Assembly (NCBI GenBank): GCA_012842685.1 | Contig: DUSI01000060.1 | Coordinates: forward strand, 5,024 to 69,023 | Direction of reading: 5' to 3' | From: Candidatus Fermentithermobacillaceae bacterium | GTDB taxonomy: Bacteria; Bacillota; Sulfobacillia; Fermentithermobacillales; Fermentithermobacillaceae | Length of the DNA: 64,000 nucleotides | Shown here: positions 25,198-35,413 of the stretch, piece after piece | Numbering within the stretch: position 1 is the stretch's first letter | Layout of the letters: the number at the start of each line of letters is the position of its first letter | Notes under the pieces: generated by a model | Seen by the model: only the letters and a program-made list of their open reading frames with translations | What the model was told of the DNA's origin: nothing | Databases searched by the model: none | Position numbers and translations under genes: made by a program

Positions 25198-28100
25198 TTG
25201 AACCTTTCTAAAAACGCGATCCAGGTCTTGGAGAAGAGGTACCTGAAAAAAGACGAGACCGGAAAACCTCTTGAGACGCCCGCCGAGATGTTCTGGCGGG
25301 TAGCCAAGAATATCGCCCTTATGGATCTGTTATATTACCCCGAGGTCTATTCCGGTCTCGCCAAGAAGCAGAAGAAAACCACCTTCGTCGCGGGAGCGCC
25401 CGAGAAGCCCGAAACGGCGGGGGAACACGAGTTCTCTCTTTCGGAATGGGACTGGGCGACCCTGAAAATGGCCTTTAGCCGTCTTGAGTCTAAGGGCCTT
25501 GCGAAGATTTCGTGGGACGATTTCAGGGAGCTGGTGGATGCGAGGAAGGACGAGATCCGCGATCTTGCGGTGAGATTCTACGAAGTGATGACCGACGTGA
25601 AATTCCTTCCCAACTCTCCTGCCCTGATCAACGCAGGGCGAGAGCTCCAGCAGCTGTCCGCTTGCTTCGTCCTGCCCATTGACGATTCGATGGTGAGCAT
25701 CTTTGATTCTTTGAAGCACGCCGCGCTCATCCACCAATCAGGCGGCGGTACTGGGTTCAGCTTCAGCCGCCTGAGGCCCAAGAACGACGTGGTGAGGTCC
25801 ACCGGCGGAGTCGCGTCGGGACCCGTTTCGTTCATGAAGGTGTTCAACGCCGCGACAGAAGCGGTTAAGCAGGGCGGAGTGAGGCGCGGCGCCAACATGG
25901 GGATCCTGCGGGTGGATCACCCGGATATCCTCGAGTTCATCACCTGCAAGACCGACAACAGCGAGCTCACCAACTTCAACATCTCGGTAGGGGTCACCGA
26001 GAAGTTTATGGAAGCCGTCAAGAAAGGCGAAGAGTACGAGCTGGTGAACCCCAGAAACGGCCAGGTGACGGGGAAGCTTAATGCCCGCGAGGTCTTCGAG
26101 AAAATCGTGGACCAGGCCTGGAGGAACGGCGAGCCGGGCATCATATTCCTCGACCGTTTGAACAGGGACAATCCCACTCCTGAAATCGGCCAGATAGAGA
26201 GCACCAACCCTTGCGTTGCGGGCGACGCCCTTGTCTCCACCGAGATGGGCCTGATCCCCATCAGGGAAATGGCGGAGAAATGGCCTGACGGTGGGATCAA
26301 GGTAACCATCGACTGGCGTGTCTTGGGTGAAAGGCTCCGGGAAGGAACGTCGGGGACCTTCGTGGAGACGGCTACCGGAGTAGGCGTCGTGCCCCTGGCA
26401 AGAGCTTTCCGGACGGCCGTCAAGGAGGTCATCCGGGTCAGGACCAGGAGCGGGTACTCGGTAGAGGTTACGCCCGATCATAAGATCATGACAACTCGTG
26501 GGTGGGTGCCTGCCGCCGAGCTCAAACCAGGAGTGGATTCGGTCCTTATCCAATCCGGCGCGGGCCGGTTCAGCTGCGACTCGTCCCTCCCTGCGGGGGC
26601 CCAAAACGCAAGGACCGGCGCCAACGGCCGTACATACCGGAAAAACTTCCCCACAACTTGGTCCAGAGAGCTAGGTATCATCTTGGGCTGGCTCGTCGGC
26701 GACGGCTGGCTTAGAGACTCTGGGAAGAACTGCCGCGTCGGTTTCACCTTCTCCGGACAAGATCTCGGCGTGATGGAGATGGTGAAGTCTGCCCTTGACA
26801 GGTGGTATGGCCCCGTAAAGCCGGTTATGCGGAAGAATGGCGTCTATCATCTCCGCTACCACTCCAAGTCGGTGGTAGAGTTCTTCCGGAGCCTTGGGGT
26901 TCAGCCAGTGAAAGCCGCCTTCAAGAGAGTGCCTGAGACCATATTCAGGGCTACCCGCGAAGCGGTAGTGGGTTTCCTCCAGGGGTTGTTCACTGCCGAT
27001 GGAACGCTGGCGACATCGCCGAACGGTACGGCCTACTTGAGGCTTACGTCCAAATCAAGGCTCCTCCTGGAGGATGTGCAGGTCCTCCTCCTGAGCCTCG
27101 GGATTATGTCGACCATCTATGACAGGTCGAGGCCTGCCAGGGAGTGTTTCTCCAACAAGACTGCCGGAGGCTCCGAAAGAGCGTATGTGAGCGACGGCGT
27201 GCTCTACGAGCTCCAGGTGTCCAAGGAAGACCTGGGACTCTTCATAGATGAAGTGGGCTTTGCCGACGACCGCTTTGCCGGGAAGATTGGAGAACTGAAG
27301 AGACGGTCGAGAGGGTTCTACCGCCGTCATTACGTGGATGTTGTCGAAGCCTTGGAACCCGTTGGCGAAAAGGAAGTCTTCGACCTGACTGTACCCATCA
27401 GCCACTCTTTCATAGCTAACGGGATTGTGGTATCCAACTGCGGAGAACAGCCTCTCTTGCCCTACGAGGCTTGCTGCCTGGGTTCCGTGAACCTGGGCGC
27501 GTTCACGAAGCCCGTCTGGGGCATGGAGAACCCGCCTAAGGACGTCACGGAGCTTGTGGACTGGGACGGGCTCAGGAAAACCGTCCGGGCGGGAGTGCAT
27601 TTCCTGGACAACCTGATAGATGCCAACAAGTACCCGCTGCCCCAGATAGACGATATGGCCCACGGGAACAGGAAGATCGGCCTTGGGGTGATGGGCTGGG
27701 CCGATATGCTCATCGACCTCGGCATACCCTACTGCTCCGAGGAAGCCCTCCAGCTCGCTGAAAGGGTCATGTCTTTCATCGAGGAAGAGTCCGTGAAGGC
27801 TTCTATGGAGCTGGCGGAGAGCCGGGGCGTATTCCCCAACTACGAAAAGAGCGTCTTCGTGGCCAAGAACAAGCCCGTTAGGAACGCCACTACCACCACC
27901 ATCGCCCCGACAGGCACCATCAGCATCATCGCGGGCGCGTCCTCGGGCATAGAGCCTCTCTTCAGCATTGCCTTCACCAGGCACGTGCTGGATAAGAAGG
28001 CCCTCGTGGAAGTGAACCCGAGGTTCGAAAGGGTGGCCCGGGCCCTCGGCTTCTTCAGCGACGCCCTCATGGAGAGGATAGCGGAGCACGGCACGCTCAA

Positions 28101-28959
28101 GGGCATCCAGGGCATACCCGATGAGGTGCGTAAGGTCTTCGTCACCGCCCACGACATAACGCCCGAGTGGCACATAAGGATGCAGGCCGCGTTCCAGAAG
28201 TACACTCACAACGCGGTATCCAAGACCGTGAACTTCCCCAACGAAGCCACCCGCGAGGACGTCAAAGAAGTGTTCATCCTGGCCAACAAGCTCGGCTGCA
28301 AGGGCGTGACCGTCTACCGGGACGGGAGCCGGAGCGAACAGGTGCTTACGGTCGGAGCCGACAAAAAGGCGAAGGCCGCGGACGAGGGGCTGGGAGCGTC
28401 AGGGGAACTCCCGGGAGGCCACGAAGGGAAGGCCAAGGCAAAGGTCAACGGGGTCTGGGGTCACGTAAAACCCATCGAGCGGCCGGTGCGTCTGGACGGT
28501 TTCACGGCCGCCAAAGAGACTCCTGTGGGCAAGCTGTTCCTCACCCTGAATACCCTGGAAGGTCACCCGGTGGAGCTGTTTGCCCAGATCGGGAAGGCAG
28601 GAAGCGACGTGGCGGCCTTCACAGAGGCGATCGCCAGGCTCATCTCGATCGCCTTGAGGTCGGGCGTGGATCCCCAGGAGATCGCGGACCAGCTTGTGGG
28701 TATCGGCGGGTCCCGCGCCATAGGTTTCGGCCCCAACAGGGTCCGTTCGGTGCCGGATGCCATAGGGCAGTTCCTGGATGAGTACCTCAGGGGAGAGTCG
28801 GAGAAGGAAGACGAAGAGGAAGACTTCGGTCCTGTCCAGGATGCGCTACCCTTGGTTCCGGGTAAGAAATTCGGCCTGTGTCCCCAGTGCGGTACCTGGA
28901 ACCTGATCCACGTTGAAGGGTGCGCGAAGTGTCTGGCTTGCGGACATAGTGAATGTTAG
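25198..28959 (+). CDS. nrdJ: Class II (adenosylcobalamin-dependent) ribonucleotide reductase, interrupted by a 409-aa intein
   Basis: RNR blocks (SACFVLP, GGGTGFSFSRLRP, ESTNP|CGEQPL) and a C-terminal Cys-rich zinc ribbon (CPQCGTWNLIHVEGCAKCLACGHSEC). The extein total is ~844 aa. Confidence 0.9.
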   Translation: MNLSKNAIQVLEKRYLKKDETGKPLETPAEMFWRVAKNIALMDLLYYPEVYSGLAKKQKKTTFVAGAPEKPETAGEHEFSLSEWDWATLKMAFSRLESKGLAKISWDDFRELVDARKDEIRDLAVRFYEVMTDVKFLPNSPALINAGRELQQLSACFVLPIDDSMVSIFDSLKHAALIHQSGGGTGFSFSRLRPKNDVVRSTGGVASGPVSFMKVFNAATEAVKQGGVRRGANMGILRVDHPDILEFITCKTDNSELTNFNISVGVTEKFMEAVKKGEEYELVNPRNGQVTGKLNAREVFEKIVDQAWRNGEPGIIFLDRLNRDNPTPEIGQIESTNPCVAGDALVSTEMGLIPIREMAEKWPDGGIKVTIDWRVLGERLREGTSGTFVETATGVGVVPLARAFRTAVKEVIRVRTRSGYSVEVTPDHKIMTTRGWVPAAELKPGVDSVLIQSGAGRFSCDSSLPAGAQNARTGANGRTYRKNFPTTWSRELGIILGWLVGDGWLRDSGKNCRVGFTFSGQDLGVMEMVKSALDRWYGPVKPVMRKNGVYHLRYHSKSVVEFFRSLGVQPVKAAFKRVPETIFRATREAVVGFLQGLFTADGTLATSPNGTAYLRLTSKSRLLLEDVQVLLLSLGIMSTIYDRSRPARECFSNKTAGGSERAYVSDGVLYELQVSKEDLGLFIDEVGFADDRFAGKIGELKRRSRGFYRRHYVDVVEALEPVGEKEVFDLTVPISHSFIANGIVVSNCGEQPLLPYEACCLGSVNLGAFTKPVWGMENPPKDVTELVDWDGLRKTVRAGVHFLDNLIDANKYPLPQIDDMAHGNRKIGLGVMGWADMLIDLGIPYCSEEALQLAERVMSFIEEESVKASMELAESRGVFPNYEKSVFVAKNKPVRNATTTTIAPTGTISIIAGASSGIEPLFSIAFTRHVLDKKALVEVNPRFERVARALGFFSDALMERIAEHGTLKGIQGIPDEVRKVFVTAHDITPEWHIRMQAAFQKYTHNAVSKTVNFPNEATREDVKEVFILANKLGCKGVTVYRDGSRSEQVLTVGADKKAKAADEGLGASGELPGGHEGKAKAKVNGVWGHVKPIERPVRLDGFTAAKETPVGKLFLTLNTLEGHPVELFAQIGKAGSDVAAFTEAIARLISIALRSGVDPQEIADQLVGIGGSRAIGFGPNRVRSVPDAIGQFLDEYLRGESEKEDEEEDFGPVQDALPLVPGKKFGLCPQCGTWNLIHVEGCAKCLACGHSEC
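26212..27438 (+). mobile_element. Intein with LAGLIDADG homing-endonuclease domain, inserted at the catalytic Cys of the NPCGE motif of nrdJ
   Basis: Block A C-VAGDALV (Cys1); block B TPDHKIMT; LAGLIDADG blocks ILGWLVGDGW and GFLQGLFTADGTL; C-terminal block VFDLTVPISHSFIANGIVVSN, followed by the extein +1 Cys (CGEQPLLPY). Confidence 0.85.
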
Positions 28960-28990
28960 GACCTGCTTAGGATATCTGAGAAACGGTCGA

Positions 28991-29024
28991 AAGGGAGGCG
29001 CCTTTGGCGTCTCCCTTTCTATAC
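28991..29024 (+). terminator. Rho-independent terminator after nrdJ
   Basis: GGGAGGCGCC-ttt-GGCGTCTCCC stem (one G-U pair) followed by TTTCTATACG. Confidence 0.65.
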
Positions 29025-29087
29025 GCCTTACGCAGGGCATATCTTGATTAGTAAGACTCACCAACCCGTCCATACAGTGGCCCAATC

Positions 29088-29130
29088 AGCACAACTGTAG
29101 CAATTGTGTATGAAAAAACAATTGTACTCC
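29088..29130. promoter_or_regulatory. Three ACAA(C/T)TGT palindromic motifs upstream of the membrane-protein operon (candidate operator / promoter region)
   Basis: ACAACTGT (29091), CAATTGTG (29100) and ACAATTGTAC (29118). Together with the later TGCGCATTTGCGGCG these are the only notable elements between two terminator-bounded units. Confidence 0.4.
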
Positions 29131-29191
29131 AGCAGGAAACTGCGCATTTGCGGCGAAATCTCAGAGTCACAATCGGGAAGGAGGTGACCAT

Positions 29192-29965
29192 ATGTCTATC
29201 GTTAGCGGTTACAGTTTCGCTTTCTGGGTAGAGCTGATCTTCCTGGTCACGGTCATCGTGATGATCAGGAGGGCCAGGGGCGGCATGAAGATCCCGGAGA
29301 TCTACAAGGTGGCAGGTCTCGAGGCTATGGATGAGGCTATCGGACGCTGCACTGAGATGGGCAAGCCGGTGCACTTCTCGCCTGGTATCGGCGACCTGCA
29401 GAACGCTCAGACGCTCGCCGCTATGTCCATCTTGAGCTACGTGGCCAAGCAGTGCGCGCGTTACGACACGGACCTAATCGCCACCAACAGGAACGTTATC
29501 GTGTATCCTCTTTCGGAGGAAATCGTGAAGCAGGCTTACGCCGAAGTCGGCAAGCTTGACAACTTCAAGCCCGATAACGTCCGTTGGATTTCCAACGACC
29601 AGTTCGCCTACGCCACCGGCGTTACCGGTATCATGTTCCGCGAGAAGCCCGCTGCCAACATCCTGGTTGGTGCGTTCTGGGCCGAGTCCTTGATCTTCGC
29701 GGAGGTCGGTTCCATCGCCGGTGCGATCCAGATCTCTGGTACCGCCAACACCCACCAGATCCCGTTCTTCGTCGCGGCTTGCGACTACTGCCTGATAGGT
29801 GAGGAGCTCTACGCTGCCAGCGCCTATCTCAGCAAGGAGCCCGTGCTCCTCGCGAGCCTCGTCGCTCAGGACTGGGGTAAGATGGTCGGCGTGCTCCTTA
29901 TCGTAGTAGGCACCGTGATGGTCAGCTTTGGTTCGAATGCTCTTAAGACTCTGCTTACCAAGTAA
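29192..29965 (+). CDS. Hypothetical membrane protein (N-terminal TM, central soluble domain, C-terminal hydrophobic region); gene 1 of a four-gene membrane operon
   Basis: Consensus RBS GGAAGGAGGTG 8 nt upstream of the ATG; hydrophobic N-terminus (FAFWVELIFLVTVIVMI) and C-terminus; no recognisable family. Confidence 0.6.
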   Translation: MSIVSGYSFAFWVELIFLVTVIVMIRRARGGMKIPEIYKVAGLEAMDEAIGRCTEMGKPVHFSPGIGDLQNAQTLAAMSILSYVAKQCARYDTDLIATNRNVIVYPLSEEIVKQAYAEVGKLDNFKPDNVRWISNDQFAYATGVTGIMFREKPAANILVGAFWAESLIFAEVGSIAGAIQISGTANTHQIPFFVAACDYCLIGEELYAASAYLSKEPVLLASLVAQDWGKMVGVLLIVVGTVMVSFGSNALKTLLTK

Positions 29966-30008
29966 GTTGTCCTTGCGATTTGTTTGCACCGGCCGAATCT
30001 GAAAGGAG

Positions 30009-30659
30009 GTGTACCGGATGAAGAAGGAGGTACCGATAGCCATTACCTTCATCCTGGCCGTGTTCTACGTAGTGGCCAACTACTTCACGGGTTCCCCGTT
30101 CCTGGCCACCGTCAAAGACCGGCTGGATAGGTGGTATCTGGTCGTAGCCGCGTGGGCGGTGCTCGTCGGTTCCATCAACCTGTGCCAGATCCACGGTCGC
30201 AGGATATCCCAGAAGAGAGAGGGCTGGGTGTTCAGCGTCTGGTTGCTGATCTGTCTATTCGGAATGATGTTCTTCGGCATCTTCATAGCCAAGAACCCGT
30301 CGCATCCAGGCTGGACTTTCATGTACAACCAGCTCATCGCTCCGATGAACGCGACCGTGTATTCTACGATCGTGTTCTATATCGGCTCTGCGGCGTACAG
30401 AGCGTTTAGGGTGCGCAGCCCTGAAGCTTCGGTTCTTCTGTTCACGGCTCTTATTATGATGCTGGGCCGCGTTCCGCTCGGCGCCATGCTCCTGGGCGGA
30501 AACCAGGCACTCTCGCAGATGGCTGACTGGATCCTGAACGTACCCAACGCAGCGGGTATGAGAGGTATTCAGATCGGCGCGTGCTTGGGTGGTGTGGCTA
30601 CAGCTCTTCGTATCGCCCTTGGAATTGAACGTGGCCACCTCGGTGGCACTGGTGAGTAA
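30009..30659 (+). CDS. Hypothetical polytopic membrane protein (~6 TM); gene 2 of the operon
   Basis: RBS AAAGGAGGTG; multiple hydrophobic helices (IAITFILAVFYVV, LVVAAWAVLVGSI, VFSVWLLICLFGMMFFGIFI ...). Confidence 0.6.
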   Translation: MYRMKKEVPIAITFILAVFYVVANYFTGSPFLATVKDRLDRWYLVVAAWAVLVGSINLCQIHGRRISQKREGWVFSVWLLICLFGMMFFGIFIAKNPSHPGWTFMYNQLIAPMNATVYSTIVFYIGSAAYRAFRVRSPEASVLLFTALIMMLGRVPLGAMLLGGNQALSQMADWILNVPNAAGMRGIQIGACLGGVATALRIALGIERGHLGGTGE

Positions 30660-30686
30660 AACTCCGCGACAAGGAGGTGAACTAGC

Positions 30687-31523
30687 GTGTGGGAAAAGCT
30701 CACGAACATTGACAGGCGTTGGCTCTACGCCTTGATGATATTGGTCATCGCCCTCGCCTTGATCAATCCCGTCGGTCTCGCGATTATACCGTCTGCCGAG
30801 ACCAAGAACGTGTACGACATCATCGAGAGCCTCCCGCCCGGAAGCATCGTGTGGATGGGCATGGAGTTCTCCGCGGGCGGTATCCCCGAACTCATGCCTG
30901 CCATCCTCTCGATGATCAGGCAGGGCTGGAAGGAAGGGCGTGACCTCAGGTTCGTCTGCGCCGGTATGTGGCAGATGGCTGGTGACATGGCCGACCAGGC
31001 GTTCACCACCCTGAAGGACGAATTCCCGAACAAGCAGTACGGGGTCGACTGGGTCAACATCGGCTACAAGCCCGGCGGCGAGGTTCTGCTCCAGCAGTAC
31101 CAGAACAACATCATCGAGACCGCTCTGGGCGTGGACTTCTACGGGAACGATCTGAACACGCTCCCGCTCATGAAGGAGTTCACCAGCCTCAAGCAGGCTG
31201 ACCTGATCGCCATCTTCTGCACCGGCACCCCCGGTGAGAAGGAGTATATCAAGCACGTAACGAGCCCGAACAACATCCCGCTCATCGAGTCGGCCATCTC
31301 GGTCAGCATTCCCGAGATCATGCCGTTCGTCCAGGCGGGCCAGATCAAGGGCCTCATCGCCGGAATGAAGGGCGCGGCTGAGTACGAGGTTCTGGTCGGA
31401 GCCCCGGGTTCGGCTACGGCAGGTATGGACGCCCAGTCGTTCTCGCACGCTCTAATCATAATCTTCATGATTCTTGGTAACATCGGTTACGTGCTTACCA
31501 AGAACAAGAAGCAAGCATCATAG
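30687..31523 (+). CDS. Hypothetical bitopic membrane protein with large extracytoplasmic domain (N- and C-terminal TM anchors); gene 3 of the operon
   Basis: RBS AAGGAGGTG; N-terminal TM (WLYALMILVIALALI), ~200-aa hydrophilic domain, C-terminal TM (ALIIIFMILGNIGYVL). Confidence 0.6.
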   Translation: MWEKLTNIDRRWLYALMILVIALALINPVGLAIIPSAETKNVYDIIESLPPGSIVWMGMEFSAGGIPELMPAILSMIRQGWKEGRDLRFVCAGMWQMAGDMADQAFTTLKDEFPNKQYGVDWVNIGYKPGGEVLLQQYQNNIIETALGVDFYGNDLNTLPLMKEFTSLKQADLIAIFCTGTPGEKEYIKHVTSPNNIPLIESAISVSIPEIMPFVQAGQIKGLIAGMKGAAEYEVLVGAPGSATAGMDAQSFSHALIIIFMILGNIGYVLTKNKKQAS

Positions 31524-31553
31524 CGGGTTGCTACCCTGAGGAGGTGAAACGTA

Positions 31554-32186
31554 ATGTCCGAAACTATGGTTACGGTGGGGACTTGGCTGCAGGCCTTCTT
31601 CACCATCGTGTTGGTTTCCGCTGTCTTCAAGGACAACCCGCTATACCGGTTTGCTGAGCACACCTATGTAGGTCTCTTCGCTGGGTATGGAGTAGCGCTC
31701 ACCTACTTCAACTATATCCGTCCGAACGTCACCAAGAACCTGCTCACGGACGGAGAGTGGTCGCTGCTCATCCCGATAATCCTGGGTCTGCTCATCTACA
31801 CCAGGTATGTCAAGCCCGTCGCTTGGCTCAGCAGGTACACTATCTGCTTCCAGCTGGGTATCGGGTCCGGGTACGTCCTTGCCAAGGACTTCAAGCCGTA
31901 CTTCGTAGACCAGATCAGGGCTACGTTCCTGCCGCTCTGGGGCACCGGAGACTGGTGGAAGGATGTGTCCAACATCCTGTTCGTAGTCGGTACGGTCTGC
32001 TCCTTGGTGTACTTCCTGTTCACCATCCAGAAGAAGGGTGTACAGGGCAAGGTTTCGCTGGTAGGTCGCTACACGATGATGATCGCGTTCGGCGCTGCCT
32101 TCGGAAACACAGTCATGGCCCGTGTATCGCTCTTCCTGGGTAGGATGCAGTTCCTCTTGGGAGACTGGTTGGGTCTCATCAAGTAG
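31554..32186 (+). CDS. Hypothetical polytopic membrane protein (~5-6 TM); gene 4 of the operon
   Basis: RBS GAGGAGGTG; hydrophobic helices throughout; a strong terminator follows. Confidence 0.6.
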   Translation: MSETMVTVGTWLQAFFTIVLVSAVFKDNPLYRFAEHTYVGLFAGYGVALTYFNYIRPNVTKNLLTDGEWSLLIPIILGLLIYTRYVKPVAWLSRYTICFQLGIGSGYVLAKDFKPYFVDQIRATFLPLWGTGDWWKDVSNILFVVGTVCSLVYFLFTIQKKGVQGKVSLVGRYTMMIAFGAAFGNTVMARVSLFLGRMQFLLGDWLGLIK

Positions 32187-32203
32187 CGACGCTTTGCGAA
32201 CGG

Positions 32204-32240
32204 CAGGCGGGAGAGCCCACCTCCCGCCTGTTGTTTTTTC
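32204..32240 (+). terminator. Rho-independent terminator of the membrane operon
   Basis: GGCGGGAG-agcccac-CTCCCGCC stem-loop followed by TGTTGTTTTTT. Confidence 0.85.
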
Positions 32241-32292
32241 AACAAGGATCATGGGGCTTGAGACGGTGTTCAAAAGATTACCCAAGACAGGT

Positions 32293-33222
32293 TTAGTAGA
32301 GGACCGTTCGGCCCTTTTGACGCCTCGAGGCCACTACATCCTCCCAGGAAGCGAGACCGGCGAAACCGGCTTGCCTCGCGAGCCTTTCCGCTTCGGCGAT
32401 GTGTAGACCTACGTACTCGGGGCGGTGGGCGTCGGAACCCGCAACGGGCGGTTTTCCTCCCATCTCCCGGTACATCTCCAGGAACCTCAAGGCGGACCAC
32501 GAGAAGTGCCCGCGCTTGTTCACCATGTCGAGGTTGATCTCCATGCGCGCCTTCTGGGCTATCGCCTGGACGGCTTTTCTTGCGAGAGGCGCGATCTTGG
32601 GATGCTGGAACGGGTCGGGCCAGAGGCCGGGAAAATACCGCTCGTAGAGATCTACGTGGCCGATAACGTCGAAAAGCCCCGATGAGGCGGCACCCTCCAG
32701 CTGGGTGAAATAGCGCACCAGAGTCTCGACGCCGAGATCTGGGTCTCGCTTGAGCATTTCCCCGGATTCGGGCCTGAACATGTCTATTGGGTATGAGTCG
32801 TGGACCGAACCAAGGATCACGTCAAACTCGCACCCGCTCAAGAAGGCGCGGGCCAGCGCGTCTTCTTCGATGGTGTACCCGATCTCTACGCCCAAGAGGA
32901 CGGTGAGCTTACCCTTGATCTCACACCTGGCTACCGCGTGCTCAACCGCCGCCCGGTAAGTCTCATAGCTCTGGCAGTAGGGGCTAAAGAACCCGAAGCC
33001 CGCCGGGTTCCTCTCGGCATGGTCTGTGACGGCCACGGCCTCGAGCCCCCGGTCCAGCGCGGCCTTCAGCACTTCCTCTACGGGCGTCCGTGAATCGGGC
33101 GACAAGATCGTGTGGGTATGGAAGTCTGAATTCAAGACGGCACCTCCAGCTGGCTCCCGCGAACACTGCTCCGGTTTTCTCCGAGTATTTCGGGGAATTT
33201 CCCACCTGACCGAGTTTATCAC
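32293..33222 (-). CDS. PHP-domain phosphoesterase (HisJ / histidinol-phosphatase-like family)
   Basis: N-terminal DFHTHTILSPDS metal-binding motif; VAVTDHA; further His/Asp ligands (GSVHDS, GSDAH). Confidence 0.7.
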   Translation of the reverse strand: MINSVRWEIPRNTRRKPEQCSREPAGGAVLNSDFHTHTILSPDSRTPVEEVLKAALDRGLEAVAVTDHAERNPAGFGFFSPYCQSYETYRAAVEHAVARCEIKGKLTVLLGVEIGYTIEEDALARAFLSGCEFDVILGSVHDSYPIDMFRPESGEMLKRDPDLGVETLVRYFTQLEGAASSGLFDVIGHVDLYERYFPGLWPDPFQHPKIAPLARKAVQAIAQKARMEINLDMVNKRGHFSWSALRFLEMYREMGGKPPVAGSDAHRPEYVGLHIAEAERLARQAGFAGLASWEDVVASRRQKGRTVLY

Positions 33223-33341
33223 TTTGAGCCCGGGAGCAGAAGGGTTTGGCAGGGAGATGAAGAAGCGAGAAGTGTATTGCCTACAGAAGAGCTTCCAATG
33301 CTTCTAACCGGACCACAGAGTCCTCTGGGAGGTGAACCTGG

Positions 33342-34226
33342 ATGATCACGGGTATCTTTGCCCCCATACCCACGCCTTTCGTCGGTGGGGAGATATCCTA
33401 CGACCATCTGGCGGAAAACATAGCGAAGTGGAACCAGACGGGCCTCGCCGGTCTGGTGGTGATGGGTTCAAACGGCGAGGCGGCGTATGTGGATGAAGAC
33501 GAGAAGGTCGAGATGTGGGCCTTCACGAGGAAGCACCTGAGCCCCGACAAGCTCCTCGTAGCCGGCACCGGCCAGGAGAGCACCAGGGCCACGATCCGCC
33601 TCACGAAGAAAGCCGCCCAGGCGGGAGCCCAGGCCGCCCTCGTCCTCAGCCCGAATTACTTTAAGGCCAATATGACTCCGGCAGCCCTGGAACGTTTCTA
33701 CAGGGATGTGGCCGACGAGTCGCCCATCCCGGTCCTCATCTACAACATGCCGGCCAACACAGGGATAAACCTGTCTTCTGCGCTGGTTACGCGGCTGGCG
33801 AACCACCCCAACATAATAGGGGTGAAGGATTCCAGCGGGAACATCGTGCAGATATCCGAGACCATAAAAGGGTCACCGGAAGGTTTCTCGGTCTTCGCCG
33901 GGTCCGCCAGCTTCCTGTTGCCGGCCGTGGTTATGGGCGCGCGGGGAGGGACTCTGGCCACGGCCAACGTAGTCCCCGACCTGTGCGTCAAGATCTACGA
34001 GCTGGCTCTCCAAGGGAAGATCGCCGAAGCCAGGGAGATCCAGATGTCCATCCTGGAGCTCAACGCGCTGGTTACTTCTAAGCACGGGGTGGCCGGTCTC
34101 AAGGCCGCGATGGATATGGCAGGGTATTTCGGCGGCGAGCCCAGGAGACCAATGCTCCCCGCGAGCGACGAAGCAAAGGCGGAGATAAGGCAGGCGCTGG
34201 AGAGGCTGGGACGCGTGGTAAGGTGA
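33342..34226 (+). CDS. DapA-family class I aldolase (dihydrodipicolinate synthase / 4-hydroxy-2-oxoglutarate aldolase / NAL family)
   Basis: GIFAPIPTPF...GLVVMGSNGEAAYVDEDEK...IYNMPANTGINL...GVKDSSG with the Schiff-base lysine region. Confidence 0.8.
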   Translation: MITGIFAPIPTPFVGGEISYDHLAENIAKWNQTGLAGLVVMGSNGEAAYVDEDEKVEMWAFTRKHLSPDKLLVAGTGQESTRATIRLTKKAAQAGAQAALVLSPNYFKANMTPAALERFYRDVADESPIPVLIYNMPANTGINLSSALVTRLANHPNIIGVKDSSGNIVQISETIKGSPEGFSVFAGSASFLLPAVVMGARGGTLATANVVPDLCVKIYELALQGKIAEAREIQMSILELNALVTSKHGVAGLKAAMDMAGYFGGEPRRPMLPASDEAKAEIRQALERLGRVVR

Positions 34227-34306
34227 ACCGCCGGCGGTTCCGCGTCCACGCCAAAGGCCCGGAAGGCCGCGCAAGAATGTGCGTTACGAAGGAAGGAGAG
34301 TCAAGA

Positions 34307-35413
34307 GTGAGACAAAGGAACCCGAAGCAGAAACTCCTCATGGGACCGGGGCCGTCAAACCCAGATCCCCGGGTACTCAGGGCCTTGTCGGAGCCGACCC
34401 TCGGGCACCTGGATCCTGACTTCTTGGAGGTAATGGACGACACCGCGGAGCTCTTGAGGTACGTCTTTAACACGAAAAACGAGCTCACCTTACCTATCTC
34501 GGGTACCGGTATGTCCGGCATGGAGACGGCCATGGTCAACTCCCTGGAGCCCGGGGACAAGGCGATTATATGCGTCGCGGGAGCCTTCGGGGAGCGTATG
34601 GCAGACGTAGCGGGGCGCGCCGGCGCACAGGTTGTCAGAGTCGAGGCGCCTTGGGGAGAACCCATCGACCCTGACGACGTGAAGAAGGCCATACGGAAGA
34701 ACCCTGATGCCAAGGTGCTTGGGATCGTACACGGCGAGACTTCTACCGGCGTCCTCCAGCCACTCGATGAAATAGCCGCTACGGTCCACGAAGCCGGCAT
34801 GCGCATCATAGTAGACACGGTCGCTTCGCTGGGCGGAGTCGATGTGCCCACGGACAGGCTCGGGCTGGACGTGGTTTATTCGGGTTCCCAGAAGTGCTTG
34901 AGCTGCCCGCCCGGTCTCGCGCCCATAACCTTCGGTGAAAAGGCAGTCGCTTTCATCGAGAACCGCAAGACCACGTGCCAGAGCTGGTACCTGGACCTCG
35001 GGATGATAAGGAGGTACTGGGGGAGCGAGCGCTTCTACCACCACACGGCGCCGATCAACATGATCTACGCCCTCAATGAAGCCCTGAGGATAGTGAAGGA
35101 AGAAGGTCTTGATGCGCGTTTCGCGAGGCACAAGGCTGCCCAGGAAGCCCTCATCGCGGGGCTCCTCGACCTAGGCCTCGAGCCGGTCGTCAACGAACCG
35201 TACAGGCTCCCAACCCTCACCACGGTCTACGTACCTGAAGGGGTAAGTGAGGCCGAAGTGCGGAGGAAGCTCATGGACGAATTCGGCATCGAGATCGCGG
35301 GCGGCCTGGGTATCTTCAAGGGTAAGATCTGGCGCATCGGCCTCATGGGTACGAACGCGACCAAGGCGAACGTGGTGAGGCTCCTCGGCGCCCTTAGAGA
35401 AGTGCTGAAGTAG
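34307..35413 (+). CDS. Class V aminotransferase of the alanine-glyoxylate / serine-pyruvate (AGXT) type
   Basis: LLMGPGPSNPDPRVLRAL N-terminal motif; PLP-lysine region VYSGSQKCLSCPPGL. Start placed at the GTG at 34307 after the RBS GGAAGGAGAG; the ORF-track start 34223 overlaps the upstream gene. Confidence 0.8.
   Translation: MRQRNPKQKLLMGPGPSNPDPRVLRALSEPTLGHLDPDFLEVMDDTAELLRYVFNTKNELTLPISGTGMSGMETAMVNSLEPGDKAIICVAGAFGERMADVAGRAGAQVVRVEAPWGEPIDPDDVKKAIRKNPDAKVLGIVHGETSTGVLQPLDEIAATVHEAGMRIIVDTVASLGGVDVPTDRLGLDVVYSGSQKCLSCPPGLAPITFGEKAVAFIENRKTTCQSWYLDLGMIRRYWGSERFYHHTAPINMIYALNEALRIVKEEGLDARFARHKAAQEALIAGLLDLGLEPVVNEPYRLPTLTTVYVPEGVSEAEVRRKLMDEFGIEIAGGLGIFKGKIWRIGLMGTNATKANVVRLLGALREVLK

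Follow-up and report, generated by a model that had tools for sequence, protein, structure and literature searches.

A conserved four-gene membrane module with a DUF6754 subunit: a candidate amino-acid uptake system in Fermentithermobacillaceae and other bacterial lineages

Introduction

What might four adjacent membrane-protein genes do together when no function is attached to any of them? The question is raised by a 64,000-nucleotide stretch of DNA from a Candidatus Fermentithermobacillaceae bacterium (contig DUSI01000060.1; the whole stretch is referred to below as the window), in which four consecutive open reading frames on the + strand, here named A, B, C and D, encode proteins of 257, 213, 278 and 210 amino acids (aa), respectively. 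The deposited products, HHY76826-HHY76829 from a metagenome-assembled genome (MAG), are all four annotated as "hypothetical protein". An earlier interpretation made from the nucleotide letters alone (the sequence-only reading) had singled these genes out as a self-contained membrane complex or transporter of unrecognised type.

Here, we show that A-B-C-D is a fixed module which diverges as a unit and multiplies into paralogues within genomes, and that several of these paralogues are wired to sensors switching genes on at lysine, tryptophan or tyrosine scarcity. With a probability of roughly 60%, we read the four genes as subunits of one predicted membrane complex, representing an uncharacterised, ATPase-less family for the uptake of amino acids or similar small metabolites; the nature of the proposed substrate is taken from the amino-acid-sensing leader RNAs that precede paralogous copies. 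The idea of a self-contained complex or transporter is thus supported by strict co-occurrence of the four genes, and sharpened by these leaders.

Results

Conservation and spread of the module

Related loci were fetched via C, yielding 83 loci from genomes and 80 from metagenomes (163 altogether), and the order of the four genes was scored wherever the contig allowed. The same order on the same strand was found in 83/83 genome loci and in 80/80 metagenome loci, at identities down to ~33%. The question of whether the four genes are always together, posed by the sequence-only reading as a check on itself, can therefore be answered in the affirmative, strictly and in 163 of 163 loci. The copy in the window conforms to the same definition, with a DUF6754 gene followed by homologues of B, C and D on the same strand and at short distances.

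Hosts of the genome loci include Bacillota (mainly Fermentithermobacillaceae and their relatives), Symbiobacterium thermophilum, Chloroflexota, Cloacimonadota, WOR-3, Zixibacteria and Eisenbacteria. Median intergenic gaps in the 81 complete modules among the genome loci are 20-25 nucleotides (nt). Evolutionary distances of the subunits co-vary (r = 0.87-0.91 overall, and 0.41-0.63 among distant pairs), with mean pairwise identity falling from A (50%) through D (42%) and B (41%) to C (39%). The 50% identity of A against the 39% of C indicates that constraint is strongest on the cytoplasmic subunit and weakest on the one facing outward.

Multiplication within genomes is extensive. At least seven copies of the module are present in MAG JAXGZG (two in locus L003, one each in L039, L043 and L065, and two in L046), at least five in JAPXKJ, at least five in CAZXLH and at least three in the complete genome CP062796. 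Many loci contain duplicates in tandem or convergent arrangement, with tandem copies present in 14 of the 80 metagenome loci, and a genome scan confirmed at least 520 relatives of C.

Sensor RNAs upstream of paralogous copies

When 74 genome loci were scanned with Rfam, three of them, L046 (75.7 bits), L063 (99 bits) and L076 (92.4 bits), proved to have a lysine riboswitch (RF00168) immediately in front of gene A. The L063 and L076 copies are orthologues of each other, and in both the lysine aptamer is followed by an intrinsic terminator. L046 represents a separate case, since the closest of the other A proteins that were fetched share only 44-47% identity with its own A; the lysine linkage therefore counts as two independent cases. 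Lysine riboswitches are described upstream of genes for lysine biosynthesis, transport and, in some species, catabolism (PMC5584792). Cobalamin riboswitches in L050 and L054 and a glycine riboswitch in L070 were discarded as unlinked to the module, since they control other genes of the same loci.

T-box leaders (RF00230) constitute the second type of sensor. In L037, the T-box in front of gene A (106.5 bits) carries the specifier GAA-UGG-A and a UGGC bulge, and is read as responding to tryptophan, because the UGG specifier is matched by a bulge that would pair with G73, which bacterial tRNA-Trp has as its discriminator base. In the sister locus, L042, a T-box scoring below threshold shows the same GAAUGGA string and is accompanied by a terminator. 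A further T-box precedes gene A in L003 and in its orthologue L029 (107.9 and 105.1 bits), with the specifier loop GAAAUACA; the specifier is most likely UAC (Tyr), since it is then followed by an A, in line with the rule of a purine at that position. T-box leaders activate genes when the cognate tRNA is uncharged, and control that is turned on at starvation argues for import rather than export.

In one further locus, L075, the module lies 28-53 bp 3' of a thiamine pyrophosphate (TPP)-riboswitch-controlled thiD-thiM-thiE-HAD operon, with no convincing terminator in between. As a separate observation, a second T-box in L003 (4525-4768, - strand) controls an adjacent Peripla_BP_6 / branched-chain-type ABC uptake system, and two different amino-acid uptake systems under T-box control, that of the module being a predicted one, thus adjoin in this locus.

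Architecture of the four subunits

Subunit A is a full-length member of Pfam family DUF6754 (PF20539; E = 8e-97, 323.8 bits against a cut-off of 27), residues 11-253 aligning to profile positions 14-255 of 257. Family-averaged hydropathy, which was used for the topology of all four subunits, places an N-terminal membrane helix, a soluble domain of ~190 aa and a C-terminal membrane helix in this protein. Residues G51, R52, E55, Q189, D198, Y199, G203 and E205 are invariant, R52 and E55 being part of a GRxTEMG[KR]P motif that is not a P-loop. Homologues of A from WOR-3, Cloacimonadota, Eisenbacteria and other groups have a signal peptide and fn3-like domains ahead of helix 1, and these N-terminal extracytoplasmic extensions range from ~100 to 1000 aa, with fn3 domains detectable in some (e.g. 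P0364). Because such extensions precede helix 1 in other phyla, the N-terminus of A is predicted to be outside and the DUF6754 body cytoplasmic. Extended forms occur in L080 (4173-4580), L062 (3887-4260) and L083 (4251-4610), in proteins P0284-P0430 and in many metagenomic lineages. The family of A comprises 2137 representatives at 50% clustering. The Pfam entry for DUF6754 covers subunit A only and has no function attached; the literature searched contained no paper mentioning DUF6754, and a literature search for MTH0777/1KJN returned irrelevant matches only.

Subunit C has N- and C-terminal membrane helices flanking a soluble domain of ~205 aa. Its AlphaFold2 model is confident (predicted local distance difference test, pLDDT, 91.2; predicted template modelling score, pTM, 0.85) and shows two membrane helices with an alpha/beta domain of Rossmann-like type, built on six strands, between them. 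From the distribution of charges and the positive-inside rule, C is predicted to have its N-terminus inside and its domain on the extracytoplasmic face. A fold search with the model returned generic Rossmann folds only; the top Foldseek matches, G-protein-coupled receptor fusions with the Rossmann domain of glycogen synthase, were rejected as an artefact of the combination "membrane helix plus Rossmann".

Subunits B and D are both polytopic, with ~6 helices each, and in both strongly hydrophobic helices alternate with weakly hydrophobic ones, which in D are Gly-rich. Conserved motifs in B are FYIxSAAYRAFRxR and PNxAGMRGIxIGAxLGxxATALRxxLGIER, and D has a conserved C-terminal motif, FGAAFGNTVMARVSLFLGRMQF. 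Within D, the Gly-rich weak helices form a weak repeat that is in register (residues 32-64 against 94-126; hhalign P = 5.6e-4); together with the shared alternation of helices, it hints at a three-hairpin repeat architecture that B and D may have in common. Pseudo-symmetry of A with C or of B with D was considered and rejected, as neither BLASTP nor profile-profile comparison detected homology within either pair, the weak internal repeat of D being the sole signal.

No Pfam or NCBIfam family was found for the single sequences of B, C and D, and none was assigned when 63 B and 78 D family members were compared with Pfam. None of the 1915 homologues of D has a Pfam domain or a name. A candidate assignment of B to TMD0_ABC (PF24357; 26.0 bits against a cut-off of 27, E = 1.1e-5) was rejected, being found in only 14/63 members, and is treated as a likeness of hydrophobic composition. 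Searches of the family profiles of A, B, C and D against PDB sequences gave nothing below E = 0.2. The earlier description of four unrecognised membrane proteins consequently stands, in the sense that only A has a family, and one without a function.

Comparison with known transport systems

In working principle, the closest analogues of the proposed system would be TRAP (DctPQM) and TTT (TctABC) transporters on the one hand and ECF transporters on the other. TRAP and TTT systems are likewise multi-subunit and ATPase-less uptake systems with an extracytoplasmic capture component and separate small and large membrane subunits, and they too have many paralogues per genome with differing substrates. 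However, their capture component is a soluble two-lobe flytrap, whereas C of the module is a single Rossmann-like lobe held on two membrane helices, and they are without a counterpart of the fourth subunit with its cytoplasmic DUF6754 domain. No Pfam match to DctP/DctQ/DctM or TctA/TctB/TctC was seen in the module at E<=1, nor at E<=0.1 across the family alignments.

The membrane subunits of ECF transporters (~200 aa, 6 helices) are comparable in size to B and D. ECF paralogues for particular substrates, tryptophan and thiamine precursors among them, are often regulated by a T-box or a riboswitch, and copies of the module show the same regulatory pattern. ECF systems nevertheless have EcfA/A' ATPases and EcfT, none of which was found in the module or conserved near it, and no match to an S-component family was obtained. 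ABC_tran has no match in A-D and is not among the commonest neighbour families, and no Walker A motif was found in the module.

The known lysine transporters linked to lysine riboswitches, LysP/GabP, YvsH (APC), LysW (NhaC) and LysXY (ABC) (PMC5584792), resemble three copies of the module in being encoded immediately 3' of the riboswitch. They are, however, single-polypeptide carriers or ABC systems belonging to well-defined COGs, whereas the module consists of four unrelated subunits without a match to any of them. The likeness of C to PntAB, the proton-translocating NAD(P) transhydrogenase, is that of generic Rossmann folds: the predicted location of the C domain is outside the cell, away from any NAD(P), sequence identity amounts to 8-12%, and no PNTB or other meaningful Pfam match exists in the module apart from one D member at E = 0.096. 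Mrp, Rnf/Nqr and PTS produced isolated sub-threshold matches only, such as B with Na+/H+ antiporter subunit G (E = 0.0094; 15.8 bits against 151) and NQR2_RnfD_RnfE in 1 of 78 D members. Exclusion of Mrp, Rnf, ECF, TRAP, ABC and PTS by the sequence-only reading is borne out by the lack of any above-threshold profile match. Nor did any confident match point to another characterised transporter or respiratory family, which leaves the proposal of a novel system intact.

Proposed function and alternative explanations

Under the preferred reading, that of ATPase-less uptake, B and D with their 12 helices in total would form a split 6+6-helix translocation pathway. C, the most variable subunit, could capture or gate the substrate through its tethered single-lobe Rossmann-like domain on the outside. 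The conserved ~190 aa cytoplasmic domain of A, with its invariant Arg, Glu, Asp, Gln and Tyr residues, may serve in coupling, gating or regulation independently of the substrate. Energy would most probably be drawn from an ion gradient, since no ATPase is encoded in the module or conserved near it.

Several observations weigh against this reading. No subunit bears likeness to a known transporter fold or family. The domain of C is a generic Rossmann-like one and not a Venus-flytrap binding protein. The roles given to the subunits are inferred, and the AlphaFold2 model of D alone is unreliable (pLDDT 63.5, pTM 0.26). Amino-acid sensor RNAs accompany only seven modules (~4 independent cases) of the 74 scanned genome loci; none was found in the clade of the window itself, and a search of the 80 metagenome loci with nhmmer and a regular expression found no T-box or lysine riboswitch. 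The specifier of L003 and L029 is ambiguous, as it could be either UAC (Tyr) or AUA (Ile). Finally, lysine riboswitches occasionally govern catabolic genes (PMC5584792).

The last point also favours the first alternative, in which the module is a membrane-bound complex with an enzymatic or sensory function, and amino acids or compounds derived from them as its targets; it might decorate envelope components with amino acids, or serve in membrane-associated catabolism or signalling, and DUF6754 would be its catalytic domain. The invariant residues R52, E55, Q189, D198, Y199 and E205 of A resemble an active or ligand site, A is the most conserved subunit, and the Rossmann-like fold of C is frequent in enzymes. 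A single chemistry is nevertheless hard to square with links to lysine, tryptophan, tyrosine and thiamine salvage, the many paralogues per genome and the variable outward subunit suit diversification of transporter substrates, and no enzyme family was detected in any subunit, all of which makes an enzyme or sensor complex unlikely. Just as improbable, in our view, is a general membrane machine with an ion-translocating, envelope-biogenesis or structural role, for which the riboswitch and T-box links would be incidental to the few copies that have them.

A still smaller chance is given to an exporter or exchanger of amino acids in which B and D would be akin to six-helix efflux carriers of the LysE/RhtB type. 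At ~210 aa and ~6 helices, both proteins are in the same size class as these exporters, and an ATPase and a classical two-lobe binding protein are absent. The direction of control is at odds with export, however: the T-box leaders turn on at starvation, when tRNA is uncharged, which suits import, and an aptamer followed by a terminator, as in L063 and L076, is the common layout of riboswitches that shut genes off in the presence of lysine. Moreover, no Pfam match to LysE or another exporter was found among the 63 B and 78 D members. Hardly credible is the notion of four independent membrane proteins merely sharing an operon: no subunit gene fusions were seen, but the order is invariant in 163 loci from at least seven phyla, the genes lie 0-50 nt apart and often overlap at start and stop codons, all four subunits co-diverge, and D cannot be modelled alone, as expected of an obligate subunit.

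The module is uncharacterised and apparently an undescribed multi-subunit system, best read as a new family of uptake transporters. More tentatively, and at somewhat less than even odds, it could represent a separate transporter class with its own architecture and coupling, evolutionarily unconnected with ABC, ECF, TRAP and TTT systems and with every known carrier superfamily, in which tethered alpha/beta domains of mirror topology, C outside and A inside, would be joined to a split 6+6-helix core; such a class might be one of the main ways by which Limnochordia-like Bacillota and several candidate phyla take up amino acids and vitamin precursors.

If the uptake reading is true, a whole transporter family is added, in which the A sequences by themselves fall into over 2000 clusters at 50% identity. 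Three of its subunits, B, C and D, have no entry in Pfam. It would explain how amino acids are acquired by many uncultured anaerobes that carry several copies each (Fermentithermobacillaceae of digesters, WOR-3, Zixibacteria, Cloacimonadota and Eisenbacteria), and would improve metabolic reconstructions, in which all of these genes now figure as "hypothetical protein". Copies linked to riboswitches and T-boxes provide substrate predictions (lysine, tryptophan, tyrosine and possibly thiamine precursors), and the family is therefore directly testable. The cytoplasmic DUF6754 domain raises the further question of how the system is energised or gated.

Gene layout, boundaries and 5' leader in the window

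The features of the window copy are collected in Table 1. The open reading frames bear out the earlier claim of four successive + strand genes, with small corrections. Sizes of 257, 278 and 210 aa are as first given for A, C and D, while the 216 aa proposed for B have to be replaced by 213: the GTG at 30009 is excluded as the start codon because it lies inside the ribosome-binding site of B itself, and the ATG at 30018 gives a protein of the length of deposited HHY76827.1. With the start of B moved accordingly, the A-B, B-C and C-D gaps are 52, 27 and 30 bp, in place of the 27-43 bp stated before. The GGAGGTG Shine-Dalgarno sequence reported for each gene is exact in 4/4 cases (at 29180, 30005, 30673 and 31540), 5-7 nt ahead of the start codon. 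Just 19 such heptamers occur in the whole 64 kb window on both strands, and the succession of four is therefore considered a real feature.

Table 1. Positions of the A-B-C-D genes and associated sequence elements in the window
Feature	Position	Strand	Remarks
Hairpin directly 3' of nrdJ stop codon	28989..29019	+	14-bp, GC-rich; upstream boundary of the unit
Three CAAYTGT elements (ACAACTGT, GCAATTGT, ACAATTGT)	29091..29125		Possible operator/promoter elements
Conserved leader block AGGAAACTGCG...GCGGCGAAAT.TCAGAG.CAC	29133..29171	+	Between likely promoter region and ribosome-binding site
Gene A with GGAGGTG site	29180..29965 (coding 29192-29965)	+	257 aa; deposited as HHY76826.1
Gene B with GGAGGTG site	30005..30659 (coding 30018-30659)	+	213 aa, ATG start; deposited as HHY76827.1
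Gene C with GGAGGTG site	30673..31523 (coding 30687-31523)	+	278 aa, GTG start
Gene D with GGAGGTG site	31540..32186 (coding 31554-32186)	+	210 aa
Intrinsic terminator of the operon	32198..32240	+	16-bp GC-rich stem (32198-32236), 7-nt loop, then TTGTTTTTT

Of the two terminators said to flank the unit, the downstream one is confirmed by its fold (32185-32250; -30.9 kcal/mol, z = -4.9), in which the stem leads into a T-run. The hairpin following nrdJ also folds stably (28960-29040; -41.6 kcal/mol, z = -5.7), but it has no T-tract and for this reason is not a canonical intrinsic terminator.

The CAAYTGT cluster upstream of gene A may represent candidate operator or promoter elements, and holds four of the six CAAYTGT matches in the window, the window-wide count being at chance level. 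The palindromic ACAATTGT motifs had been presented as a notable upstream element, which was an overstatement: the exact octamer occurs once and is also found in 19/100 shuffles. They were rejected as a significant operator in view of the chance-level count and of the CAATTG-N12-CAATTG spacing, which is kept solely in the closest relative, L008.

The leader block downstream of the cluster is common to relatives at 80-93% protein identity, being conserved in L005-L008 and partly in L009, L012, L014 and L017. The leader of the window copy was rejected as a known riboswitch: Rfam gave nothing at E<=1, a T-box core is lacking, and RNAalifold yielded no consensus structure; given the lack of an Rfam match and of a consensus secondary structure, the block may be a protein-binding or promoter-proximal element.

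Neighbouring genes

No gene family generally accompanies the module, and neighbours vary from locus to locus. The commonest class consists of peptidases and amidohydrolases (~14 of 136 non-redundant; M20, S9, amidohydrolase, TldD/PmbA and M28). A recurrent trio, composed of a family-less protein of ~140 aa, a "MutL protein" (PF13941, ~610 aa) and a ~375 aa RnfC_N/biotin-lipoyl-like barrel-sandwich protein, is present in four loci of different lineages (L022, 8461-11969; L059, 7600-9462; L081, 7049-10383; L083, 807-4216). TonB-dependent outer-membrane receptors are encoded just 3' of the module in two diderm lineages (L061, 8531-11305; L083, 8470-11172), an adjacency that would suit uptake across the inner membrane. 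One group of orthologous modules has a tmRNA gene directly 3' on the opposite strand (L066, 8561-8908; L072, 7776-8126; L077, 7665-8011), and positions 618-684 of L021 match a group II intron domain.

In the window itself, the upstream gene (25198-28959, +) encodes an nrdJ-type ribonucleotide reductase of 1253 aa, interrupted by an intein that carries a LAGLIDADG homing-endonuclease domain (Pfam Intein_splicing and LAGLIDADG_3; ~residues 382-747). Downstream, a convergent gene for a PHP-domain phosphoesterase (32293-33222, -) is followed by a DHDPS-family gene (33342-34226, +) and by a gene assigned through cluster membership to the class V aminotransferases (34223-35413, +), a synteny (32293-35413) that is retained among close relatives only.

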